Both the position numbers and the translations under genes were made by a program. A DNA stretch of 64,000 nt from Shigella phage ESh32, in sequence record ON528742; one strand, written 5' to 3'. Below, piece by piece: positions 9,033 through 54,322 of this stretch. The stretch's first letter is position 1. Each line of letters begins with the position of its first letter. The notes beneath the pieces are model-generated. The model was given only the letters and a program-made list of their open reading frames with translations, was not told the origin of the DNA and made no database searches.

Positions 9033-9494
9033 ATGATTATTAATGAAAATTCTTGGCATTATAAATTATTCAAATTGTTTAACGATGAATGGCAACGACC
9101 TAAGACACTATGCGCATATTTTTGGTCTATTGCCATTCCTACATTTTTCGTTTCTATTTTTGGATGTACTATACTCGTAGGGCTAACAATTATTTGTGCA
9201 GAAAGCCTACAACGTTGGCTTATTTTCGGTAGTTTATGGACTCTTCTTCCATCGGCATTTATATTTGCGCTTTTGGCTGTTTTACTTATTATTGGTTCAT
9301 TTGTTATTCCTGTACATTTGCGTGAAAAATATAAAGATTATAAATGGAAAAAGGATTATGCTTTACACGTAGAAAACATTGATAGGAAAAATAAAGGTTT
9401 ACCTCCTATTCAACCCAAGAAATCGATTATCGTTGAATTTTTAAAAGCTCGTAAAGCTAAAGTATGTCCTGTTATTGAATATAAGGCTGAATGA
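9033..9494 (+). CDS. integral membrane protein
   Basis: 153 aa with at least three hydrophobic helices. Confidence 0.55.
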   Translation: MIINENSWHYKLFKLFNDEWQRPKTLCAYFWSIAIPTFFVSIFGCTILVGLTIICAESLQRWLIFGSLWTLLPSAFIFALLAVLLIIGSFVIPVHLREKYKDYKWKKDYALHVENIDRKNKGLPPIQPKKSIIVEFLKARKAKVCPVIEYKAE

Positions 9495-10504
9495 TGAAAA
9501 CAGTAATGAAAAGCTATTTTGGTAGTCATCTTTATGGAACTTCTACTCCAGAATCGGATGTAGATTTTAAAGAAATTTTTGTTCCTCCTGCTCGTGATAT
9601 TCTTATCGGAAACGTTAAAGATCATATGAGCAAAAACACTAACAACACATCATCTAAAAACACTAAAGATGATATTGACCATGAACTATACAGTCTTAAA
9701 TATTTCTTTAAATTAGCAGCAGATGGTGAAACCGTAGCATTAGATATGCTCCACACTCCACCTGAACTAGTAGTTAAATCTGATTTGCCTGATGTGTGGA
9801 AGTTTATTCAAGACAACCGTTCTCGTTTTTATACGACTAACATGAAATCATATTTAGGATATGTCCGCAAGCAAGCTTCTAAATACGGTGTCAAAGGTTC
9901 TCGTTTGGCTGCATTACGTGATGTATTGAAAGTAGTTAATCAAATCCCTGAGCAGTGGATTGATTACCAAGAAGATGGTTCTATTAAGCAGCGTCGCACT
10001 AAAGTTGAAGATATTAAGCATCGTCTTCCAGAAAACGAATTCTGTGAATGGGTGTTCCATAATCATGAGAAAACAGGCCCACAAACGTTCTACACTGTGT
10101 TGGGTCGTAAATATCAGACAACGCTTTCTCTTATTGAGCTTAAGCAGTCACTGAACAGATTAGATGCTGAATATGGTGAACGTGCTCGTAAGGCCGAAGC
10201 CAATGAAGGCATTGACTGGAAAGCTTTGAGTCATGCTTGTCGTGGTGGACTTCAATTATTGGAAATTTACAAAACTGGTGACTTAGTATATCCACTCCAA
10301 GATGCTCCCTTTATTCTCGACGTGAAGTTGGGTAAGCATCCATTTAAAACGGTTCAAGAGTTTTTGGAAGATGTGGTCGATCAAGTAGAAGCAGCATCTA
10401 CTGAAGCTTCTAAGAACGGTATGCAGCAAAAAGTAGACATGAGTTTTTGGGATGACTTCCTTGAGAAGGTCTATCTTGAAAACCACCGAAGTTATTATAA
10501 ATGA
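9491..10504 (+). CDS. Pol-beta-superfamily nucleotidyltransferase-like protein
   Basis: FGSHLYGTSTPESDVDF fits the GS-x9-13-DxD nucleotidyltransferase motif; 337 aa. Confidence 0.55.
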   Translation: MMKTVMKSYFGSHLYGTSTPESDVDFKEIFVPPARDILIGNVKDHMSKNTNNTSSKNTKDDIDHELYSLKYFFKLAADGETVALDMLHTPPELVVKSDLPDVWKFIQDNRSRFYTTNMKSYLGYVRKQASKYGVKGSRLAALRDVLKVVNQIPEQWIDYQEDGSIKQRRTKVEDIKHRLPENEFCEWVFHNHEKTGPQTFYTVLGRKYQTTLSLIELKQSLNRLDAEYGERARKAEANEGIDWKALSHACRGGLQLLEIYKTGDLVYPLQDAPFILDVKLGKHPFKTVQEFLEDVVDQVEAASTEASKNGMQQKVDMSFWDDFLEKVYLENHRSYYK

Positions 10505-10554: not shown

Positions 10555-10584
10555 GTTTACAAGCATAAAGCTTTATGGTACTAT
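10555..10584 (+). promoter_or_regulatory. T4-type early promoter with A/T-rich upstream element (cassette copy A)
   Basis: aaaaatttttcacaaagttgtttacaag ... atggtactat. Confidence 0.6.
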
Positions 10585-10618
10585 ACAACTATCAACTGAT
10601 ACGGATTTGGAGAATAAA

Positions 10619-11587
10619 ATGAAAACTGTAACTATCAATAAGGGTATCTACTTCGGTAAAGAAATCTCTGGAACTTTTGAGCTCTTAGGCGAATGGTTCC
10701 CAGATAATGCTCCGGTAGATGCACAAGGAGATGGTAAAGTTTTTGTTGAAATTGACGGTAAACGTCGCGGTGTTTGGGTTTACAAATCAGACATTTCATA
10801 TGATGGTGTAAAAGTTGAAGAAGTTAAAGAATCATATGAAGATATGAAAACCCGCATTAATAAAAGATTTAATGTTATGGGAATGATGACGAATGGTATT
10901 ATTAACGGAAACATTCGTTCATTAATTATCTCTGGTGCGGCGGGTATTGGTAAAACGTATTCTTTAGATAAAGCTTTAAATAAAGCAAATGATATTGGAT
11001 ACATTGAATATAAAAGCATTAACGGTAAAATCTCCGGTATCGGTCTTTATGAGCAGCTTTGGAATAATCGTGAAGAGAATTCTGTCCTTTTGATTGATGA
11101 TGTGGATGTTTTCTCTGATATGGACATTCTTAATCTTCTGAAAGCTGCTCTGGACACCGGAGAGACCCGTAAAGTCTGCTGGAGCACCGCATCTTCTTAC
11201 TTAGAAGAAAAAGGCATTGAGCGTGAGTTTGAATTTAAAGGAACGATTGTTTTTATCACAAACGTTGACATTGACCGCGAATTAGACCGTGGTACTAAAC
11301 TTGCTCCACATTTACAAGCATTAGTGTCCCGCTCAGTTTATTTGGATTTGGGTGTTCACACTAATGAAGAAATTATGGTCAGGGTTGAAGATGTTATTCT
11401 TTCAACTGACATGATGCAAAAGCGCGGTCTTTCTGATGAAGAAACTTATAAAGCATTATCATGGATGAAAGTCAATGTTAATCGTTTACGCAATGTTTCA
11501 CTGCGTACTGCTCTTTATCTTGCTGACTTTATTATGACCGACAAAAACGGTTGGGAAGAAATTGCTGAAACGGTATTATTAAAATGA
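10619..11587 (+). CDS. AAA+/P-loop ATPase
   Basis: Walker A GAAGIGKTY, Walker B VLLIDDVD; ATG at 10619 after GGAG in the conserved leader. Confidence 0.65.
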   Translation: MKTVTINKGIYFGKEISGTFELLGEWFPDNAPVDAQGDGKVFVEIDGKRRGVWVYKSDISYDGVKVEEVKESYEDMKTRINKRFNVMGMMTNGIINGNIRSLIISGAAGIGKTYSLDKALNKANDIGYIEYKSINGKISGIGLYEQLWNNREENSVLLIDDVDVFSDMDILNLLKAALDTGETRKVCWSTASSYLEEKGIEREFEFKGTIVFITNVDIDRELDRGTKLAPHLQALVSRSVYLDLGVHTNEEIMVRVEDVILSTDMMQKRGLSDEETYKALSWMKVNVNRLRNVSLRTALYLADFIMTDKNGWEEIAETVLLK

Positions 11588-12303
11588 AAAAATATTTTAC
11601 TATCTATAAAACTGAAATATTAAATTTAAAGACAGGTATTAAGAAATACTATTATGGTCGACATATAACTAATAACATCAATGATTCGTATGTTGGTAGT
11701 GGAAATTATATAGAACGTGTAAAAGTGTCAAATGACCATATATTATCAAAAACGGTTTTAGAAGTTTTTGATAATTATGATAAAATGGTACAAGCCGAAA
11801 TATTATATATCATGGCAGGTAAATTGAAATATGGAAAAAACTGCGTTAACCTGTCATATGGGGGTGAAGGAGGAAAGGTTGCAGATGAAACTAGGATAAA
11901 ATGTAAAAAGCATTCTATAAATTTATGGAAAAATCCTAATCATATAGAGCATATGAAGAAAAAGATGAAAGAGGTCACATCCACGCCGGAAGCTAAATTA
12001 AACACTTCAATAAAAACTTCACAACGATATAAGGACCCAGCTTTTGTTAGAAAAGTTAGTAATATTATTAAAAAGACACTAAGCAATCCTACAGTAAAAG
12101 AAAAGCACATTAATGGAATTAAAGCTGCAAAGCGTTCTCATTTAACTATATGGCAGTATGAAGATGAATTATTCGAGCTTTGGAAAGAAACTAAATACGG
12201 ATGGAGAAAATTTACAAAGGAAGCTATAAAACACGGTTATCCAAATGAACCTTATCGTAGTATGGTATCAACTTTTCAGAAAAGACATTTAGAAGAATCG
12301 TAA
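11584..12303 (+). CDS. GIY-YIG family homing endonuclease-like protein (seg-like)
   Basis: N-terminal FTIYKTEILNLKTGIKKYYYGRH (GIY..YIG-like spacing, following Arg); basic C-terminal region. Confidence 0.6.
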   Translation: MKKYFTIYKTEILNLKTGIKKYYYGRHITNNINDSYVGSGNYIERVKVSNDHILSKTVLEVFDNYDKMVQAEILYIMAGKLKYGKNCVNLSYGGEGGKVADETRIKCKKHSINLWKNPNHIEHMKKKMKEVTSTPEAKLNTSIKTSQRYKDPAFVRKVSNIIKKTLSNPTVKEKHINGIKAAKRSHLTIWQYEDELFELWKETKYGWRKFTKEAIKHGYPNEPYRSMVSTFQKRHLEES

Positions 12304-12385
12304 GACAAAAAGGCAGTTCAGAAATAGATTATATGGACTGCCATCAAAAAGATGACTAGAATTAAACTGGTAAATGGAGGTAATG

Positions 12386-12688
12386 ATGTTATACTCAAAG
12401 GCTCGTGAAATTTACGAAACTAAAATTAAAGAAGCAGTATTTCAGTTCGCAACAACAATGCGATGGACCAATGATTGGGAATATTCAAAAAATCATAAGA
12501 AGCCCCTGGTGACAAGAAAGGCTCATATGTTAGTGTTAATAGACCGTGAGCAGATTAAAGCCCGAGAAGCTCTCCAGAATCATAAAAAGGCTGCCTTTGA
12601 ATGGTTTATGGATAACACTGCTCCTGAGACTAAGAAAGCAGTGAGCGCGTGGTTCAGTGGAAAAAATTGTGAAAGAAGTTTCTTTTAG
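12386..12688 (+). CDS. hypothetical protein
   Basis: ORF 12374..12688; start at 12386 preferred for spacing from GGAGG, 12374 possible. Confidence 0.45.
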   Translation: MLYSKAREIYETKIKEAVFQFATTMRWTNDWEYSKNHKKPLVTRKAHMLVLIDREQIKAREALQNHKKAAFEWFMDNTAPETKKAVSAWFSGKNCERSFF

Positions 12689-12690
12689 TT

Positions 12691-12720
12691 GTTTACAAGA
12701 CCGTTCCTCTGTGGTACTAT
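12691..12720 (+). promoter_or_regulatory. T4-type early promoter (cassette copy B)
   Basis: gtttacaagaccgttcctctgtggtactat. Confidence 0.6.
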
Positions 12721-12748
12721 ACAACTATCAACTACGGAGGAACAGAAA

Positions 12749-13276
12749 ATGAATGCTAAAGATATTTTCAACCTGGTAAATTACAACGATGGTAAATTTA
12801 AATCAGAAGCACAAAGCAAGTTCTTTAATGACATCTCAATCGGAGGTGAAATCACGGTTGACGGAGGACAAATTTACAAATCCCGTTGGAATTGGATCGT
12901 TATTATTGACGAGATCGGTATTGTAGAAATTTACAAAAATACGAATAAAAATCGTACATTACACTGGTCTCGTGATACTAACGAACAGTACAAAAAGGAT
13001 AAAGCATCTAAATTATCTCGTGTAACTCAAGAAGATATTGAGTTCATCAAGAAAGATATTTTGATGTATGATAACTTAATTGCTGAAGAGCAAGCTGTTA
13101 TTGATAAATTTGACGAGATTAAAGCTTCTCGTGAAATTCCTGATTTTATGAAAGAATCAGTAAATGAACGATACACTCTCATTTCAGAGCGTATTGAAAC
13201 TTACAAAAAGCAAAGAGCTGAACGCCAGAATACTCTTCGGAAGTTTGAAGAACGGTTAAAGACGGTACTCGCATAA
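12749..13276 (+). CDS. hypothetical protein with C-terminal coiled coil
   Basis: ORF 12689..13276; ATG at 12749 after GGAGG; C-terminal heptad-like helix. Confidence 0.55.
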   Translation: MNAKDIFNLVNYNDGKFKSEAQSKFFNDISIGGEITVDGGQIYKSRWNWIVIIDEIGIVEIYKNTNKNRTLHWSRDTNEQYKKDKASKLSRVTQEDIEFIKKDILMYDNLIAEEQAVIDKFDEIKASREIPDFMKESVNERYTLISERIETYKKQRAERQNTLRKFEERLKTVLA

Positions 13277-13331
13277 CCGCTTTATACCAAGGATGGTATA
13301 ATGGTTCTAAGCCCTTTTAATTGAGATTATT

Positions 13332-13739
13332 ATGAAACAGTTGATAATTAAAAGATTGAATTTATTGATATGTTGTTTATGCGTAGTAGTTGCATATGGT
13401 TATTACGCAATTAATGATTATATGCATTATAAAGATTATGATGTTACTGTAGTTAATACCCTTACAGGAACTCAAGGAAAGGGGTCTAGTTTATCGTTTA
13501 TTGCCGTATATGAACTCAAAGACGGTTATAGATTTAGTGAATATATTTCACCGGAGATGTATTCTTCAATAGAAAAAGGTGATAATATTACTGTAAGTTT
13601 ACGTCCTTTCGACGTAAAACAGACATTGTTTGATAATATCGTTTGGTTCTTTGGAATGGTATTAGTTCAATCTGTGTGTGGTGCTTATATAGTCTGTTCC
13701 ATCATATTCTGCGTATTTAGTAAAATTGAAATTGAGTGA
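13332..13739 (+). CDS. membrane protein
   Basis: 135 aa, N- and C-terminal hydrophobic helices. Confidence 0.5.
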   Translation: MKQLIIKRLNLLICCLCVVVAYGYYAINDYMHYKDYDVTVVNTLTGTQGKGSSLSFIAVYELKDGYRFSEYISPEMYSSIEKGDNITVSLRPFDVKQTLFDNIVWFFGMVLVQSVCGAYIVCSIIFCVFSKIEIE

Positions 13740-13746
13740 GGAAAAT

Positions 13747-14634
13747 ATGTCAGTAGTAATTAATAATGTCAATGCAGTAATTAAATCTTTAGTTAATAAA
13801 AAATTGAATGAATGGACTGTACTTCGTCGTGGAGAGCCAGATAAATTTTTTCATAGATTTAACCCAACTTTGGATTTGAATGTTATTGACAGAGATGTTC
13901 ATGCTGAAATTTTAGATAAATTTAAAGTTGATATTGGGTTTGGATTAGATAAACATTTACAACGAACAAACGGGTCTGGAATGGGTTTATCTAATCGCAT
14001 CATGAAAGCCCTTAATAAAATTGGAGCGTTGTCTCGTATTAATGCAAGTGAAATTCTTCGCAATTATAATAAAGGCTATGATCTTTACGGTCGACTAATG
14101 CCGAAATTATCATTTGACCAAATGATCGCAGATTTGTGGGAAAATCAACGACGATTATTAGCATTAGGCGCTCGATTAGCTAAAGGTCTAGATAAACAAA
14201 TGATTTTTAAGACCAATAATACAGAAGACCTTAAATGCTTTAAATTTAGTATTCGCGGCGATGATTATTACGTCAGAGCTCGCTCTACAGATTATGTTAA
14301 TATGGGGCATCATCTCTGTTTAGCTTTTGAAGTTTTAAAAGAAGCCGGAACGTTAGAATATTCATCTGGTGCTAAATGCCCGATTGGTTCAAATTGCATT
14401 TTAATTTATCGCCCGGATGAATCCAGTTTAACTAAATTTCCTACAAAACCTGTACCAGTTCGTAGTAACGAAAAACATTCTGAACAAATTGATTATTTTA
14501 ATAAGCAAATTGAAGAGCTGAATATTTCTATTCAACAATATGACGATGAAATCTTTAGACTATCTGGATTGAGTAGTAAAGCTAAATCTGAGCGTGAAAA
14601 GTTAATTAAAATTGTTGATTTACTTAAATCTTAA
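13747..14634 (+). CDS. hypothetical protein with C-terminal coiled coil
   Basis: ORF 13726..14634 (TTG at 13726); ATG at 13747 after GAGGA. Confidence 0.55.
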   Translation: MSVVINNVNAVIKSLVNKKLNEWTVLRRGEPDKFFHRFNPTLDLNVIDRDVHAEILDKFKVDIGFGLDKHLQRTNGSGMGLSNRIMKALNKIGALSRINASEILRNYNKGYDLYGRLMPKLSFDQMIADLWENQRRLLALGARLAKGLDKQMIFKTNNTEDLKCFKFSIRGDDYYVRARSTDYVNMGHHLCLAFEVLKEAGTLEYSSGAKCPIGSNCILIYRPDESSLTKFPTKPVPVRSNEKHSEQIDYFNKQIEELNISIQQYDDEIFRLSGLSSKAKSEREKLIKIVDLLKS

Positions 14635-14642
14635 GGAACACT

Positions 14643-15662
14643 ATGAAAACTCGTTCTCAAATTGAAGATATGGTTCGTAATGCCAGCTATACTCGTGATG
14701 TTATGACATTTTTGTGCCAAAATAATTTAGACCCTGATAGAGTTAATAGTTCCATTCACTTTAAGTATATGAATAGCAGTGAATGGTTACGTCATTTTAG
14801 TAAAGCGGGATATATTACACAAATGACTGCTCGTGAGCAGCTCACCGATTTCTGTAAAACTATTGATTATAAAAATCCTCTATTTGTTCAAGGTGTTGGT
14901 CAGAGTAAGGTTGATTTATCATCTGGATTTTTCAATCCCAATCATTATCGTATTGAATGGAGATTTATTGCTCTATTCCGTAAACAGTTAAAGCAAATTT
15001 TGTCGACAGCTAGTCGATTAAAAGGTTCTGACATTAACTTAAAGAACCTGAAATTTGATGGTTATACTCTTCAGATGGAAGTAAGACCATTAAAAGAAAA
15101 TAATAGAACTGCACGAATTAGCTTTAAACCTAATACAAAAAATTCTCTTTCAATTTGTGAATGCCTTAAATCACAGTTGACAGAAGCATTTAAGTATATG
15201 GATGTTGTTGCCGCTGTTCAGTCTAAGATTTTACCTCGTTTTGAACGATTTAAGTTAGATACAACAACGTATGAACTTGATATGATCGTTTCATTTAAAT
15301 ACGATTTTTTGAGAAAGGACGAAGTCCCGCAAGAGAAAAAGCAGGAAGTACAAGATAACTTAAATTTATCCAATTACTTATCAAACGATCCTAAATTTTG
15401 GATGTATAGTTCAGGTAATAATGATGCATGGAAATTCAATAAAGTGAATTTTCTTCCTGTTGAAAATCCGAGTCTTAAACCTGTTGAAAAATGGCACGCG
15501 GATGCGATTGAGAAGTCTATCAAGGCAGTAGATGATGAACTCGTTAAAGCGACCAATGAAGTGCTAGAAGCTGAAAAGGCGTTAGAACAAGCTCAGTCAA
15601 GGGTTCAAAATCTGACAAAGCAACGTTCTAAACTGAACAATGCATTAAATGCACTGAACTAG
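14643..15662 (+). CDS. hypothetical protein with C-terminal coiled coil
   Basis: 339 aa; AAGGAA RBS. Confidence 0.6.
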   Translation: MKTRSQIEDMVRNASYTRDVMTFLCQNNLDPDRVNSSIHFKYMNSSEWLRHFSKAGYITQMTAREQLTDFCKTIDYKNPLFVQGVGQSKVDLSSGFFNPNHYRIEWRFIALFRKQLKQILSTASRLKGSDINLKNLKFDGYTLQMEVRPLKENNRTARISFKPNTKNSLSICECLKSQLTEAFKYMDVVAAVQSKILPRFERFKLDTTTYELDMIVSFKYDFLRKDEVPQEKKQEVQDNLNLSNYLSNDPKFWMYSSGNNDAWKFNKVNFLPVENPSLKPVEKWHADAIEKSIKAVDDELVKATNEVLEAEKALEQAQSRVQNLTKQRSKLNNALNALN

Positions 15663-15691
15663 TTTACTTTGCCACAAGGATGTGGTATAAT
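15662..15691 (+). promoter_or_regulatory. T4-type early promoter
   Basis: agtttactttgccacaaggatgtggtataat; near-duplicate of promoter at 60182. Confidence 0.6.
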
Positions 15692-15719
15692 GTTCTTACT
15701 TTCTACTGAGGAGATTAAT

Positions 15720-16721
15720 ATGACTCGTAACGAATATATCAAATCATTCAATAGGGTTATTGATGATAAAGTTAAACCCATGTCTAGTCAGAATGCTGTT
15801 CTTTCTATTATCAATCAATGGCTCAGCAGTATTGATGCAAGTATTGTTTCTTCCAGTAAATTTATTCATGAAGTTCGTGAAATTTCTAGCCGTGTAGATA
15901 AAGATGATATTAAGATAATCTTTAAAGGGTCTCGTCTTCTTTCATATTTAGTTAATCGGGATATTCTTGGTAATTTTGGGAAAGAAATTAAACGAACTAA
16001 AGGTGTAATAGGATACAATTGGTTCGGTGATGTTAATTCTTATCATCTTAATATCAAAGAAGACCCTAAGAATATTTTTACTCGTCGTTGGATTAGTAAT
16101 TTCAGACTTTTTAAAGGACAAATTCTAAAATCAGCTTCTAAATTATGTTATGGCGATTATCGTCAAATTCATCCTTTGGCTTCTGATATGATTATCGTAA
16201 AAGAATATGAGCTTGATAAAAATAAAGTAGCTATTTTTGTGAATTATGAATTTTTTACACCAGAAGCTAACCAAAAGAATATTAATAAATTTTTCTCAAT
16301 TGCTAGCACTATAACTCATCAATTAGAGACGGCTTTGGATTGTATGGAAACTGTAAAAAGTATTCATACATATCCTTTCAAAAATATTGGTGGTTGGGAA
16401 GGATATAAAATTGTAATTAGTCTTCGTGAAGTGAAATGTGCTTATTCACTAACTGATAAAGAAATTTACCAACAAAAATGCGAAGAAATTGTGAATACTC
16501 CTAAAGAAGAAACTACCCTTGAGGAACTAATGGATAATCTTGACGATTCACTTGAACCGGTAGAAATTCGTCCAGAAGTTGTTGCATTAGAAAAAGCTTA
16601 TAAAGAAGTTCTAGAAATTTCTAATAAAGCGCAGAAAGAATATGAGAAGGCTAAAAAGATTTGGGAAGAATCTGTTAATCGCTTGGATCGTCTTGAACAA
16701 GCTTTACAGTTAATTAAGTAA
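15720..16721 (+). CDS. hypothetical protein with C-terminal coiled coil
   Basis: ORF 15669..16721; ATG at 15720 after GAGGAG. Confidence 0.6.
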   Translation: MTRNEYIKSFNRVIDDKVKPMSSQNAVLSIINQWLSSIDASIVSSSKFIHEVREISSRVDKDDIKIIFKGSRLLSYLVNRDILGNFGKEIKRTKGVIGYNWFGDVNSYHLNIKEDPKNIFTRRWISNFRLFKGQILKSASKLCYGDYRQIHPLASDMIIVKEYELDKNKVAIFVNYEFFTPEANQKNINKFFSIASTITHQLETALDCMETVKSIHTYPFKNIGGWEGYKIVISLREVKCAYSLTDKEIYQQKCEEIVNTPKEETTLEELMDNLDDSLEPVEIRPEVVALEKAYKEVLEISNKAQKEYEKAKKIWEESVNRLDRLEQALQLIK

Positions 16722-16772
16722 TTTAAAGCCAAGGATGGCTCGGAGTATAAATCATTAACAAGTGAGAAGAAC

Positions 16773-17702
16773 ATGAAAACTCGTAAACATTATATTGATT
16801 ATTTTGACAGTCTTATTACTAAACATCGTAATTATCAGATCGGACACAGAGCAGTAATCAATAATATTCTTCGTGATTTCCTTCAATATGTTGGCCAGGA
16901 AAATCATATCTGTAAAGATACTCAAAACGCTTATTCTCATTCGTTAGGCAATTTGCTTGAATGGTTTAAACGTTCTCGTATGTTATCTTCTACTATAGCT
17001 CGTGATAACATTAAAAACTTTATGAAGCCGAGCTTCATTAAATCTGAGACATCTATAACCGATTTGGTTCAATTTACTATTGTTAACGATGTTAAAAAGA
17101 CCCATTTGGCTGATTGGTTATCTACCATTCCTGAAACTAAATTTGCTGATAAATTTGCTTGTCAATTCAATACCCAAGTGAATATGCTTTTTAAGCATGC
17201 TCGCAAACTGTTTACCGCGGGCGATGATCGTACAAATACAGTTCATGTTAAGGACTGGGTTATTGCTGATGAAGTAACACACAAGCCAGGTGGTTCATCA
17301 GTATTAATTAATATCCAGGTTCCTTATTATTACTCACGTAATCTCGGCACCATGACAGCTAAAGAAATTAATAAGCACAACAAAACTATTCGTTCGTTGT
17401 CTTATAAACTCCGCATGATGTTAAAAATTATGGACGTAGTGGAAATGTATGACGAAACCGAAGATAATGGTTCAATGTTATACAGTTCACGCATTCTAAT
17501 TAAACTGAAGAACCCTAATACATATAAGACAGTTGTAAAAGAGCCTAAAGTAGAAAAGGTTGATAATCTGGGTGAAGAACGTGAATATCTCAATGCCCGT
17601 TTGACTGAAGTTGAAAAACAAATTGAAGAGCATACTAAAGTTCTTAAGGCTTTAACCGCCAAAGCAAATGGTTTACGTAATGCTATTGAGGTATTGAAAT
17701 GA
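16773..17702 (+). CDS. hypothetical protein with C-terminal coiled coil
   Basis: 309 aa. Confidence 0.6.
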   Translation: MKTRKHYIDYFDSLITKHRNYQIGHRAVINNILRDFLQYVGQENHICKDTQNAYSHSLGNLLEWFKRSRMLSSTIARDNIKNFMKPSFIKSETSITDLVQFTIVNDVKKTHLADWLSTIPETKFADKFACQFNTQVNMLFKHARKLFTAGDDRTNTVHVKDWVIADEVTHKPGGSSVLINIQVPYYYSRNLGTMTAKEINKHNKTIRSLSYKLRMMLKIMDVVEMYDETEDNGSMLYSSRILIKLKNPNTYKTVVKEPKVEKVDNLGEEREYLNARLTEVEKQIEEHTKVLKALTAKANGLRNAIEVLK

Positions 17703-18088
17703 AAAAGCGTTTATTAGAAGACATTGCAGCTTCAAGTAATTCCAGTTTAATTAAAATTATTATGGCTGGTGAGGAAGATGATATGGAAATGCGTGGAAAG
17801 ATTCACGGCTGCGACGATTTAGATTTTAAACCTCCAGCATGGGATGCTATTATGGCTATGGTTGAACGACGTGAAAGAGCTTCTAAAAACGTTCCTAATT
17901 GCCCTGAATGCGGTACTGAACAAGTTCAGTTGATTAACTGGCGTAAACCAGAGCTTGAATATAAATGCCGTCAATGTAAACATAAATTCAGTAAGCATGC
18001 TCCGGAAATGGTTAAATTGCCTGACTCTACTGAGTTCTTTAAAGAACTTGTGAGTGTTCAACCAATGCCTAATAATATTTTGGATTAA
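17699..18088 (+). CDS. zinc-ribbon protein
   Basis: CPECGTEQ...CRQCKHKF four-Cys motif; ATGA overlap upstream. Confidence 0.55.
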
Positions 18089-53855: not shown

Positions 53856-54087
53856 AGATCAGTTTTATCTGCTTCAAGATAAAGTGAGCGAAATTTATGA
53901 AATAGCTTATAGTAAAAATCGTAGAAATGTAAAAATTGAATCTGGCAAGTTAATGCTTCAATTAGAAGAAATTGAACGAGATTTAATTGCGTTAGAATTC
54001 TTTTGTGGTGAAGTGAAAACTGTCACAATCAGTGATTATGTTTTAGGTGAAATTAGCCATCTTTATAAGGCGGTTATTAATGATTGA
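53842..54087 (+). CDS. hypothetical protein (tandem paralog), probable GTG start
   Basis: ORF 53827..54087 (TTG); GTG at 53842 is 5 nt after GAGGAAG. Confidence 0.45.
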   Translation: MEITKDQFYLLQDKVSEIYEIAYSKNRRNVKIESGKLMLQLEEIERDLIALEFFCGEVKTVTISDYVLGEISHLYKAVIND

Positions 54088-54322
54088 ATTAAGTTTGCAT
54101 CAGTTTAAATCTCTTATGACAAATGTTAAAGCTGTCATTGAGGAAAATTCTAGTCCTGAAAATATTACTATTCGCGAAAAAGCTTTAAAGATAGTATACA
54201 GTCTTGAAGAGATACAAAAAGATATTGAATCTATGGCAAAATTTATTGATGAGCCTATTAATAAAGTTTATATCCAAGATTATACTGTAGGTCAAATTCG
54301 CGATTTAGCAAGGAAAATTTAA
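54080..54322 (+). CDS. hypothetical protein (tandem paralog)
   Basis: ORF 54047..54322; ATG at 54080; ...VYIQDYTVGQIRDLARKI parallels ...VTISDYVLGEISHLYKAV upstream. Confidence 0.45.
   Translation: MIELSLHQFKSLMTNVKAVIEENSSPENITIREKALKIVYSLEEIQKDIESMAKFIDEPINKVYIQDYTVGQIRDLARKI

Follow-up and report, generated by a model that had tools for sequence, protein, structure and literature searches.

The nrdC.3–nrdC.6 genes of a T4-like Shigella phage as probable tandem paralogues with a conserved C-terminal helix: a candidate counter-defence family

Five open reading frames (ORFs) of 175–339 amino acids (aa) lie on the plus strand of Shigella phage ESh32 (sequence record ON528742), between positions 12,749 and 17,702 of the 64,000-nucleotide (nt) stretch that was analysed and that we call the window. 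An earlier note, made from the sequence alone, described them as five tandem proteins without obvious N-terminal similarity, each ending in a similar coiled-coil tail, and proposed that one docking or oligomerisation module is attached to variable effector domains in all of them. The locus thus raises the question of whether one helix has been distributed over different proteins or was inherited together with them, and what such a helix might serve. The 6.1 kb around the five ORFs are 93–99% identical to hundreds of Tequatrovirus genomes; to judge from its sequence, the window is the genome of a T4-like phage of that genus, and its plus strand is the direction of T4 early transcription. The coordinates, lengths and tail sequences given in the note were all exact on re-checking, and its guess that the ORFs correspond to uncharacterised nrdC.x ORFs of T4 was right: with gene names assigned in the window from the annotation of RB3, they are nrdC.8 (12749–13276; 175 aa), nrdC.6 (13747–14634; 295 aa), nrdC.5 (14643–15662; 339 aa), nrdC.4 (15720–16721; 333 aa) and nrdC.3 (16773–17702; 309 aa). 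They do form a same-strand array but are not strictly adjacent, for the gene of a membrane protein, nrdC.7 (13332–13739), separates nrdC.8 from nrdC.6.

Profile comparisons and structure models indicate that four of the five, nrdC.3, nrdC.4, nrdC.5 and nrdC.6, are very probably full-length, strongly diverged tandem paralogues sharing one architecture. Pairwise BLASTP among ten nrdC.x proteins detects no significant similarity, and at that level the bodies do look unrelated; for nrdC.3–6, the impression does not survive profile–profile comparison and structure prediction. Both nrdC.4 and nrdC.3 match phrog_1435 over their full length (E-values of 4.9e-164 and 9.9e-115), and a metagenomic protein, P0226, bridges the two (BLAST 6e-33 with nrdC.4 and 6e-10 with nrdC.3). 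When the ortholog alignments were compared with hhalign, nrdC.4 and nrdC.3 aligned with 98% probability (E = 9.5e-14) over residues 1–219 and 2–230, a span that covers exactly the N-terminal and core regions, while nrdC.4/nrdC.5 (E = 1.6e-5) and nrdC.5/nrdC.3 (E = 4.3e-5) aligned over almost their full length. Furthermore, profiles were enriched with homologs of other genera, added by iterated hidden Markov model search of fetched loci: the enriched nrdC.3+4 profile finds nrdC.5 with 94.8% probability (E = 5e-8; residues 67–327/43–311) and the nrdC.6 family with 95.4% (E = 1.7e-8; residues 7–226/17–216).

The four window proteins also share three motifs in collinear order. Motif 1, FK.SR.LS....RD.L..F.K, occupies residues 65–85 in nrdC.3, 68–88 in nrdC.4, 52–72 in nrdC.5 and 89–109 in nrdC.6; motif 2, ILK.A.KL..GD.R, residues 137–153, 133–148, 117–132 and 135–150, respectively; motif 3, QL..A...M..V, follows downstream of motif 2. 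AlphaFold2 models were made for nrdC.4 and nrdC.6, from alignments of 24 and 26 homologs, and the two cores have the same order of elements (H-H-h-E-E-H-E-E), then a linker and a long helix. In Foldseek searches of BFVD, the nrdC.4 model matches the NrdC.6 of JS10 (E = 2e-4) and the T4-type NrdC.3 of fPS-65 (E = 4.5e-7). Moreover, both models find the same proteins of about 300–335 aa in five T4-like phages: Enterobacter phage IME523, Pectobacterium phage PM2, Acinetobacter phage Acj61, Klebsiella phage Mineola and Yersinia phage fHe-Yen9-01. In this family, the N-terminal domain (about 85 residues) is helical; an alpha/beta domain of roughly 150 residues, a disordered linker of 15–45 and the C-terminal amphipathic helix of 45–50 follow.

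The databases keep these proteins apart. The homologs of nrdC.4 all carry the precomputed annotation PF26897; nrdC.6 matches phrog_2257 over its full length (E = 2.1e-152) and its homologs carry precomputed PF26899; nrdC.5 scores 409 bits against the Pfam model DUF7235 (PF23882; cut-off 30, E = 1.7e-122), a model that nrdC.3, nrdC.4, nrdC.6 and nrdC.8 do not match. We propose to unite PF26897/phrog_1435, PF26899/phrog_2257 and DUF7235 in one NrdC.3-6 superfamily. Genes and families were in the catalogues before, and a function is known for one, the T4 NrdC.5; what is new is the unification of the families with a defined architecture, and the array does not represent a new type of system. The window nrdC.5 is the ortholog of T4 NrdC.5 (about 96% identity), and nrdC.3, nrdC.4 and nrdC.6 would be its remote paralogs with the same architecture, their identity to it lying under the detection limit of pairwise BLAST.

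The C-terminal tails are not a product of composition. We scored the last 42 residues of each protein for the best a/d heptad register and compared the score with those obtained after shuffling the same residues 2000 times. In the five tails, just 0–8 of the 2000 shuffles attained the observed score; in the flanking nrdC.2, nrdC.7, nrdC.9, nrdC.10 and nrdC.11, 1288–1993 did. Nowhere else in any of the five proteins does a heptad window score as high as at the C-terminus, and the register counted from the C-terminus is identical in all, allowing for one extra terminal residue in nrdC.6 and nrdC.8. Each protein ends in an amphipathic, heptad-patterned helix of about 42–50 residues, with continuous a/d periodicity over at least four to five heptads: aa 131–175 of nrdC.8 (13139–13273; 8/2000 shuffles), aa 242–295 of nrdC.6 (14470–14631; ending in KLIKIVDLLKS), aa 290–339 of nrdC.5 (15510–15659; ending in KLNNALNALN; 0/2000), aa 285–333 of nrdC.4 (16572–16718; ending in RLEQALQLIK) and aa 265–309 of nrdC.3 (17565–17699), all on the plus strand. 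In addition to the heptad test, those of nrdC.4 and nrdC.6 are predicted by AlphaFold2, as a single helix 285–332 in nrdC.4 (mean predicted local distance difference test score, pLDDT, 83; predicted template modelling score, pTM, 0.67) and as two helices, 242–271 and 277–294, in nrdC.6 (pLDDT 77), in both cases after a linker of low confidence. Heptad statistics and models together thus bear out the claim of C-terminal coiled-coil tails as a non-random feature. The window has 87 plus-strand ORFs of 80 aa or more; only six of them end in such a tail, the five discussed here and one other. The sixth, at 54080–54322 (+; 80 aa; p = 0.004), has two Pro/Gly residues within its last 42 and no Pfam match.

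How alike the tails are to each other is a different matter. Compared by hhalign on their own, the tails of nrdC.3 and nrdC.5 align in register with a raw P-value of 4.6e-5. As a control, we shuffled alignment columns only within heptad classes (100 trials): the observed score was attained by 2 of 100 shuffles for nrdC.3/nrdC.5, by 3 for nrdC.4/nrdC.5 and by 18–70 for most other pairs, so that the raw tail-only P-values were rejected as coiled-coil bias. In all, nine of the ten pairs were attained by 2–70 shuffles; the tenth, attained by none, is a match of 12 columns between nrdC.6 and nrdC.8. An ungapped profile score anchored at the C-terminus over 42 columns gave z-values of 0.2–1.9 within nrdC.3–6 and of −1.7 to 1.0 with nrdC.8. 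Over the last 16 columns, all six pairs within nrdC.3–6 lie above the control (z = 1.6–3.0), and the nrdC.8 pairs do not. These terminal columns hold the motif L-x-x-A-[LI]-x-x-L-K, present too in orthologs of other genera. The alleged similarity of the tails is, therefore, only weakly supported, being marginal against heptad-preserving shuffles and clearest in the terminal motif, and across the paralogs aligned here the tail is no better conserved than the proteins that carry it. The earlier note would have given up its idea if the tails were no more similar than random coiled coils and the proteins did not occur together in other phages: the tails barely exceed heptad-matched random coils, yet the genes co-occur in hundreds of phages.

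The fifth protein, nrdC.8, stands apart. With hhalign it gives no signal against any of the other four (probability at most 0.7%); it matches, over its full length, a PHROG of its own (phrog_2274), outside the NrdC.3-6 superfamily; and in the profile score anchored at the C-terminus its tail lacks the terminal motif of the four paralogs. The idea that nrdC.8 is a truncated family member was rejected, as there is neither an hhalign link nor the motif. The 12-column match with nrdC.6 (‘KAxAERQ’; 0/100 shuffles) is out of register and was judged a chance result after multiple testing. On these comparisons, nrdC.8, a small early protein, is unrelated to the four paralogs and happens to have a predicted C-terminal coiled coil of its own.

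Within ortholog groups, conservation is highest or close to highest in the tail, and the globular body diverges fast; the existence of a conserved C-terminal amphipathic helix behind highly variable bodies, as the note had it, is thereby upheld. Mean pairwise identity in the tail versus the alpha/beta core is 0.74 versus 0.52 for nrdC.4, 0.80 versus 0.67 for nrdC.3 and 0.70 versus 0.52–0.57 for nrdC.6, where one core motif block reaches 0.76. Between the metagenomic P0226 and nrdC.4, identity is 63% for the tail and 21–31% elsewhere. The ratio of non-synonymous (dN) to synonymous (dS) substitution rates is 0.11 in the nrdC.4 tail, and the tail of nrdC.6 shows, against T4, a dN of 0 at a dS of 0.11. 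Low dN beside an ordinary dS implies a constraint at the protein level, and the tail is, therefore, kept by purifying selection. For the same phage pair, the bodies share 49–55% identity versus 82% for the neighbouring nrdC.10 and nrdC.11.

In nrdC.3, divergence is patchy. The window protein is just 61% identical to that of T4; dS is saturated (>1) in the core and 0.09 in the tail, the DNA of which is almost the same as in T4, and residues 61–135 are nearest to the allele of Mosigvirus JS09 (dS = 0.14). By this dS pattern, nrdC.3 is a mosaic allele, the globular body of which has been exchanged between phage lineages as a cassette, the tail region serving as a flank. Among phage records, 289 carry an nrdC.3 that is 60–80% identical to the window allele and 357 one that is at least 90% identical. 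A rearranged allele of another member occurs in Shigella phage Sf25, whose NrdC.6 (P0121; 378 aa) has an in-frame internal tandem duplication of residues ~176–258, repeating the second half of the alpha/beta domain plus the linker.

The family is confined to T4-like phages in our searches, where it varies in copy number from one to four in tandem between genera of Straboviridae. Phage records carrying nrdC.3 number 653 and those carrying nrdC.8, 741. Tequatrovirus has all five genes together; in Mosigvirus nrdC.8, nrdC.6, nrdC.5 and nrdC.3 are found, and Dhakavirus and Gaprivervirus have nrdC.8, nrdC.6, an nrdC.5-like gene and nrdC.4. Jiaodavirus, Karamvirus, Tegunavirus and Acinetobacter phage Acj61 carry one to three family members between nrdC.10 and nrdC, including a tandem pair in Acj61. 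No member was found near nrdC.10 in the Vibrio and Aeromonas loci examined. Searching 1.84 billion representatives with the nrdC.4 profile returned seven matches, all T4-like, and no cellular relatives; PDB sequence searches with nrdC.4, nrdC.5 and nrdC.8 returned no relatives either. A coupling of the array to the upstream ATPase nrdC.10 was rejected, as the distribution of the latter is far wider: its 1311 phage records extend to Vibrio, Aeromonas and jumbo phages.

The nrdC.x genes are dispensable and are missing from evolved T4 clones (PMC9391042). Natural deletions occur as well: in phage ACG-C40 (NC_019399.1; 5805–6216), the first 71 codons of nrdC.5 are joined, out of frame, to the last ~72 of nrdC.3, so that nrdC.4 is lost entirely and nrdC.5 and nrdC.3 for the most part. 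Another deletion that spans nrdC.4, and that arose independently, is seen in P0119 (contigs of up to 167 kb, metagenomic or isolate), an in-frame chimera of nrdC.5 residues 145–271 and nrdC.3 residues ~138–309, fused at non-homologous positions.

Two elements resembling T4 early promoters lie in the array, both matches to the consensus: before nrdC.8 (12692–12720, +) GTTTACA-17-TACTAT, preceded by TG, and before nrdC.4 (15663–15691, +) TTTACT-17-TATAAT, also with TG. In a scan of the window, promoter-like sites overall are no commoner than in shuffled sequence, and we keep the intergenic early-type matches as leads. An upstream element of about 45 nt (GTTTACA-N17-GGTACTATACAACTATCAACT...) is nearly identical at 10560–10618 (nrdC.10) and 12690–12748 (nrdC.8) and resembles a T4 early promoter with its leader; as it is shared, the program-made ORF list shows similar N-terminal extensions (‘...GTIQLST...’) for both.

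What could such an array do? The one member with a known role is nrdC.5: the T4 gene restores plating of a T4 deletion mutant on Dsr1 hosts (Srikant et al. 2022, eLife, PMC9391042). Close by, nrdC.1 inhibits Septu (bioRxiv 10.1101/2025.11.20.689424) and gp49.2 inhibits OLD (PMC13096335), so that a counter-defence island is taking shape in the nrdC–49 region of T4-like phages. Because nrdC.5 acts against Dsr1, neighbours act against Septu and OLD, the genes are dispensable and variable in copy number, and early-promoter-like elements occur among them, we favour, with a probability of about 0.6, the reading that nrdC.3–6 are a tandemly duplicated counter-defence family, in which the bodies would engage different host immune proteins and the conserved helix would oligomerise. 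An ancestral gene very probably gave rise to tandem copies, in which the inherited tail was kept while the globular bodies diverged and were swapped between lineages. The tail helix, which by sequence and model could plausibly act in oligomerisation or docking, would form a coiled coil, most likely making the protein a homo-oligomer, and the divergent bodies would bind different immune proteins of the host. We infer this oligomerisation, as well as a counter-defence role for nrdC.3, nrdC.4 and nrdC.6; the array would then be a battery of early-expressed factors, with the anti-Dsr1 NrdC.5 as the experimentally supported one. If this holds, NrdC.3, NrdC.4 and NrdC.6 are three new candidate inhibitors of other defence systems, the dependence on the tail becomes a simple question to ask about how NrdC.5 works, and the locus exemplifies how phages broaden a counter-defence repertoire by tandem duplication and cassette exchange.

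Several results weigh against the counter-defence reading or parts of it. The demonstrated phenotype is confined to NrdC.5 of T4 (PMC9391042), and we found no literature on its mechanism or on these Pfam families. The codon analysis detected no region with dN/dS above 1, and thus no direct signature of positive selection; the sole value of 1.0 comes from very few changes. The direct hhalign match between nrdC.5 and nrdC.6 is weak (P of about 0.01), and their relation rests on transitivity via nrdC.3/4. Over the full 42 residues, the similarity of the tails between paralogs does not clearly exceed the coiled-coil background. A crude heptad score is weaker in distant members (Acinetobacter, Klebsiella), in a test that discriminates poorly (controls at p = 0.016–0.09) and that we did not use as evidence. 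Finally, instead of oligomerising, the tail helix could be packed against the body of its own protein or could bind a partner.

The alternative closest to the earlier note, that a mobile docking or oligomerisation helix was joined to five unrelated effector domains by domain shuffling, would account for the failure of BLASTP to see any similarity between the bodies, for heptad tails in the same register from the C-terminus in all five proteins, for the strong conservation of the tail relative to the body in P0226 and among nrdC.3 alleles, and for nrdC.8 as an unrelated body with a coiled-coil tail. We consider it very improbable, and for nrdC.3–6 largely refuted: four of the five bodies are homologous in their N-terminal and core regions by profiles and predicted structure, so that the common tail of the four is best explained as inherited from their common ancestor through tandem duplication and not as shuffled onto different domains; the similarity of the tails alone is near heptad-matched random expectation, and the tail of nrdC.8 is without the terminal motif. 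The helix may also be a non-oligomerising element, either an intramolecular lid or regulator on its own globular domain or a surface contacting the target, and the d positions of the nrdC.5 tail are, as read from the heptad register, rich in Ala and less typical of canonical parallel dimers; the flexible linker ahead of the helix and the strong purifying selection upon it, as for a functional interface, fit this as well. An uninterrupted heptad helix of 45–50 residues with charged e/g positions is, however, the classic signature of a coiled coil, and we hold the non-oligomerising alternative to be rather unlikely.

Another possibility concerns the function as a whole: the proteins might have a non-immune early role, for instance as coiled-coil dimers binding DNA, the nucleoid or the transcription machinery, with an indirect effect on Dsr1. 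Residues 30–86 of nrdC.3 bear a weak resemblance to the SAM-like domain at the N-terminus of tyrosine recombinases (E = 0.059 in Pfam and 0.001 in NCBIfam, both sub-cut-off), the position of the family between nrdC.10 and nrdC is conserved across many genera, and dN/dS nowhere points to positive selection. The recombinase-like matches are, however, far under the curated cut-offs; beyond DUF7235, the Pfam and NCBIfam scans of the proteins gave only this hint and sub-threshold coiled-coil noise. Dispensable and variably present genes, bodies that diverge far faster than nrdC.10 and nrdC.11, and adjacent genes that are proven defence inhibitors (PMC13096335; bioRxiv 10.1101/2025.11.20.689424) all speak against a non-immune role, which we regard as unlikely. 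We also entertain, as a quite improbable variant, that NrdC.3-6 are early oligomeric decoys, in which the alpha/beta domain would imitate a conserved shape of a virion protein, such as that of a tail terminator, and the tail would present two or more copies of it, so that the paralogs saturate or mis-assemble different structure-recognising receptors (Dsr1/Avs-type) before the late proteins appear; through their related tails, they might co-assemble into mixed complexes.

Known systems offer partial parallels to the counter-defence family we propose. The NrdC.3-6 alpha/beta domain may resemble tail terminators (lambda gpU-like fold, DUF3168), its best fold matches. A structural role is made less likely by the position of the nrdC.x genes, which lie among early genes and near early-promoter-like elements. 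A working analogy for NrdC.5 is DSAD1 of phage SPbeta, which is reported to inhibit the defence-associated sirtuin DSR2; DSR2 senses the tail tube, whereas Dsr1, the case of NrdC.5, senses the major capsid protein. DSAD1 is likened to NrdC.5 by function alone, and it is not reported to belong to a tandem paralog array. The nearest true precedent in T4 for a short conserved terminal module on variable bodies is given by the internal proteins IPI, IPII and IPIII, which have variable, defence-related bodies with a common short capsid-targeting sequence. Their module, about 10 residues long, sits at the N-terminus and is cleaved off, unlike the C-terminal coiled coil of the nrdC tails, and we saw no similarity between the two modules. 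IPIII is a host-range factor (PMC9391042).

The genes around the array were named from the RB3 annotation as well. Upstream lie nrdC.11 (9491–10504), encoding a nucleotidyltransferase of the RlaP type, nrdC.10 (10619–11587), encoding an AAA-type, AAA/STAND-like ATPase, and nrdC.9 (12374–12688); downstream of nrdC.3 follow nrdC.2, nrdC.1, nrdC and then gene 49. Both nrdC.11 and nrdC.10 are far more widely conserved than the paralog family and remain adjacent in the T4-like genera examined. Between nrdC.10 and nrdC.9, the window carries an inserted ORF of 239 aa (11584–12303), overlapping the nrdC.10 stop codon and endonuclease-like. T4 is without it and has a gap of only ~100 nt at that place, and in RB3 it is split into two coding sequences. 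It is labelled ‘putative site-specific intron-like DNA endonuclease’ in RB3 and T6; it has no Pfam match, and its N-terminus (YYYGRH...YVGSG) resembles GIY-YIG when judged by eye. In the window, nrdC.2 (17699–18088) encodes 129 aa; its versions in T4, RB3 and ACG-C40 have 104 aa. Identity is 78% over the first ~99 residues, where a zinc ribbon lies, and the additional C-terminal ~25 residues weakly match a PHROG annotated as hydrolase.

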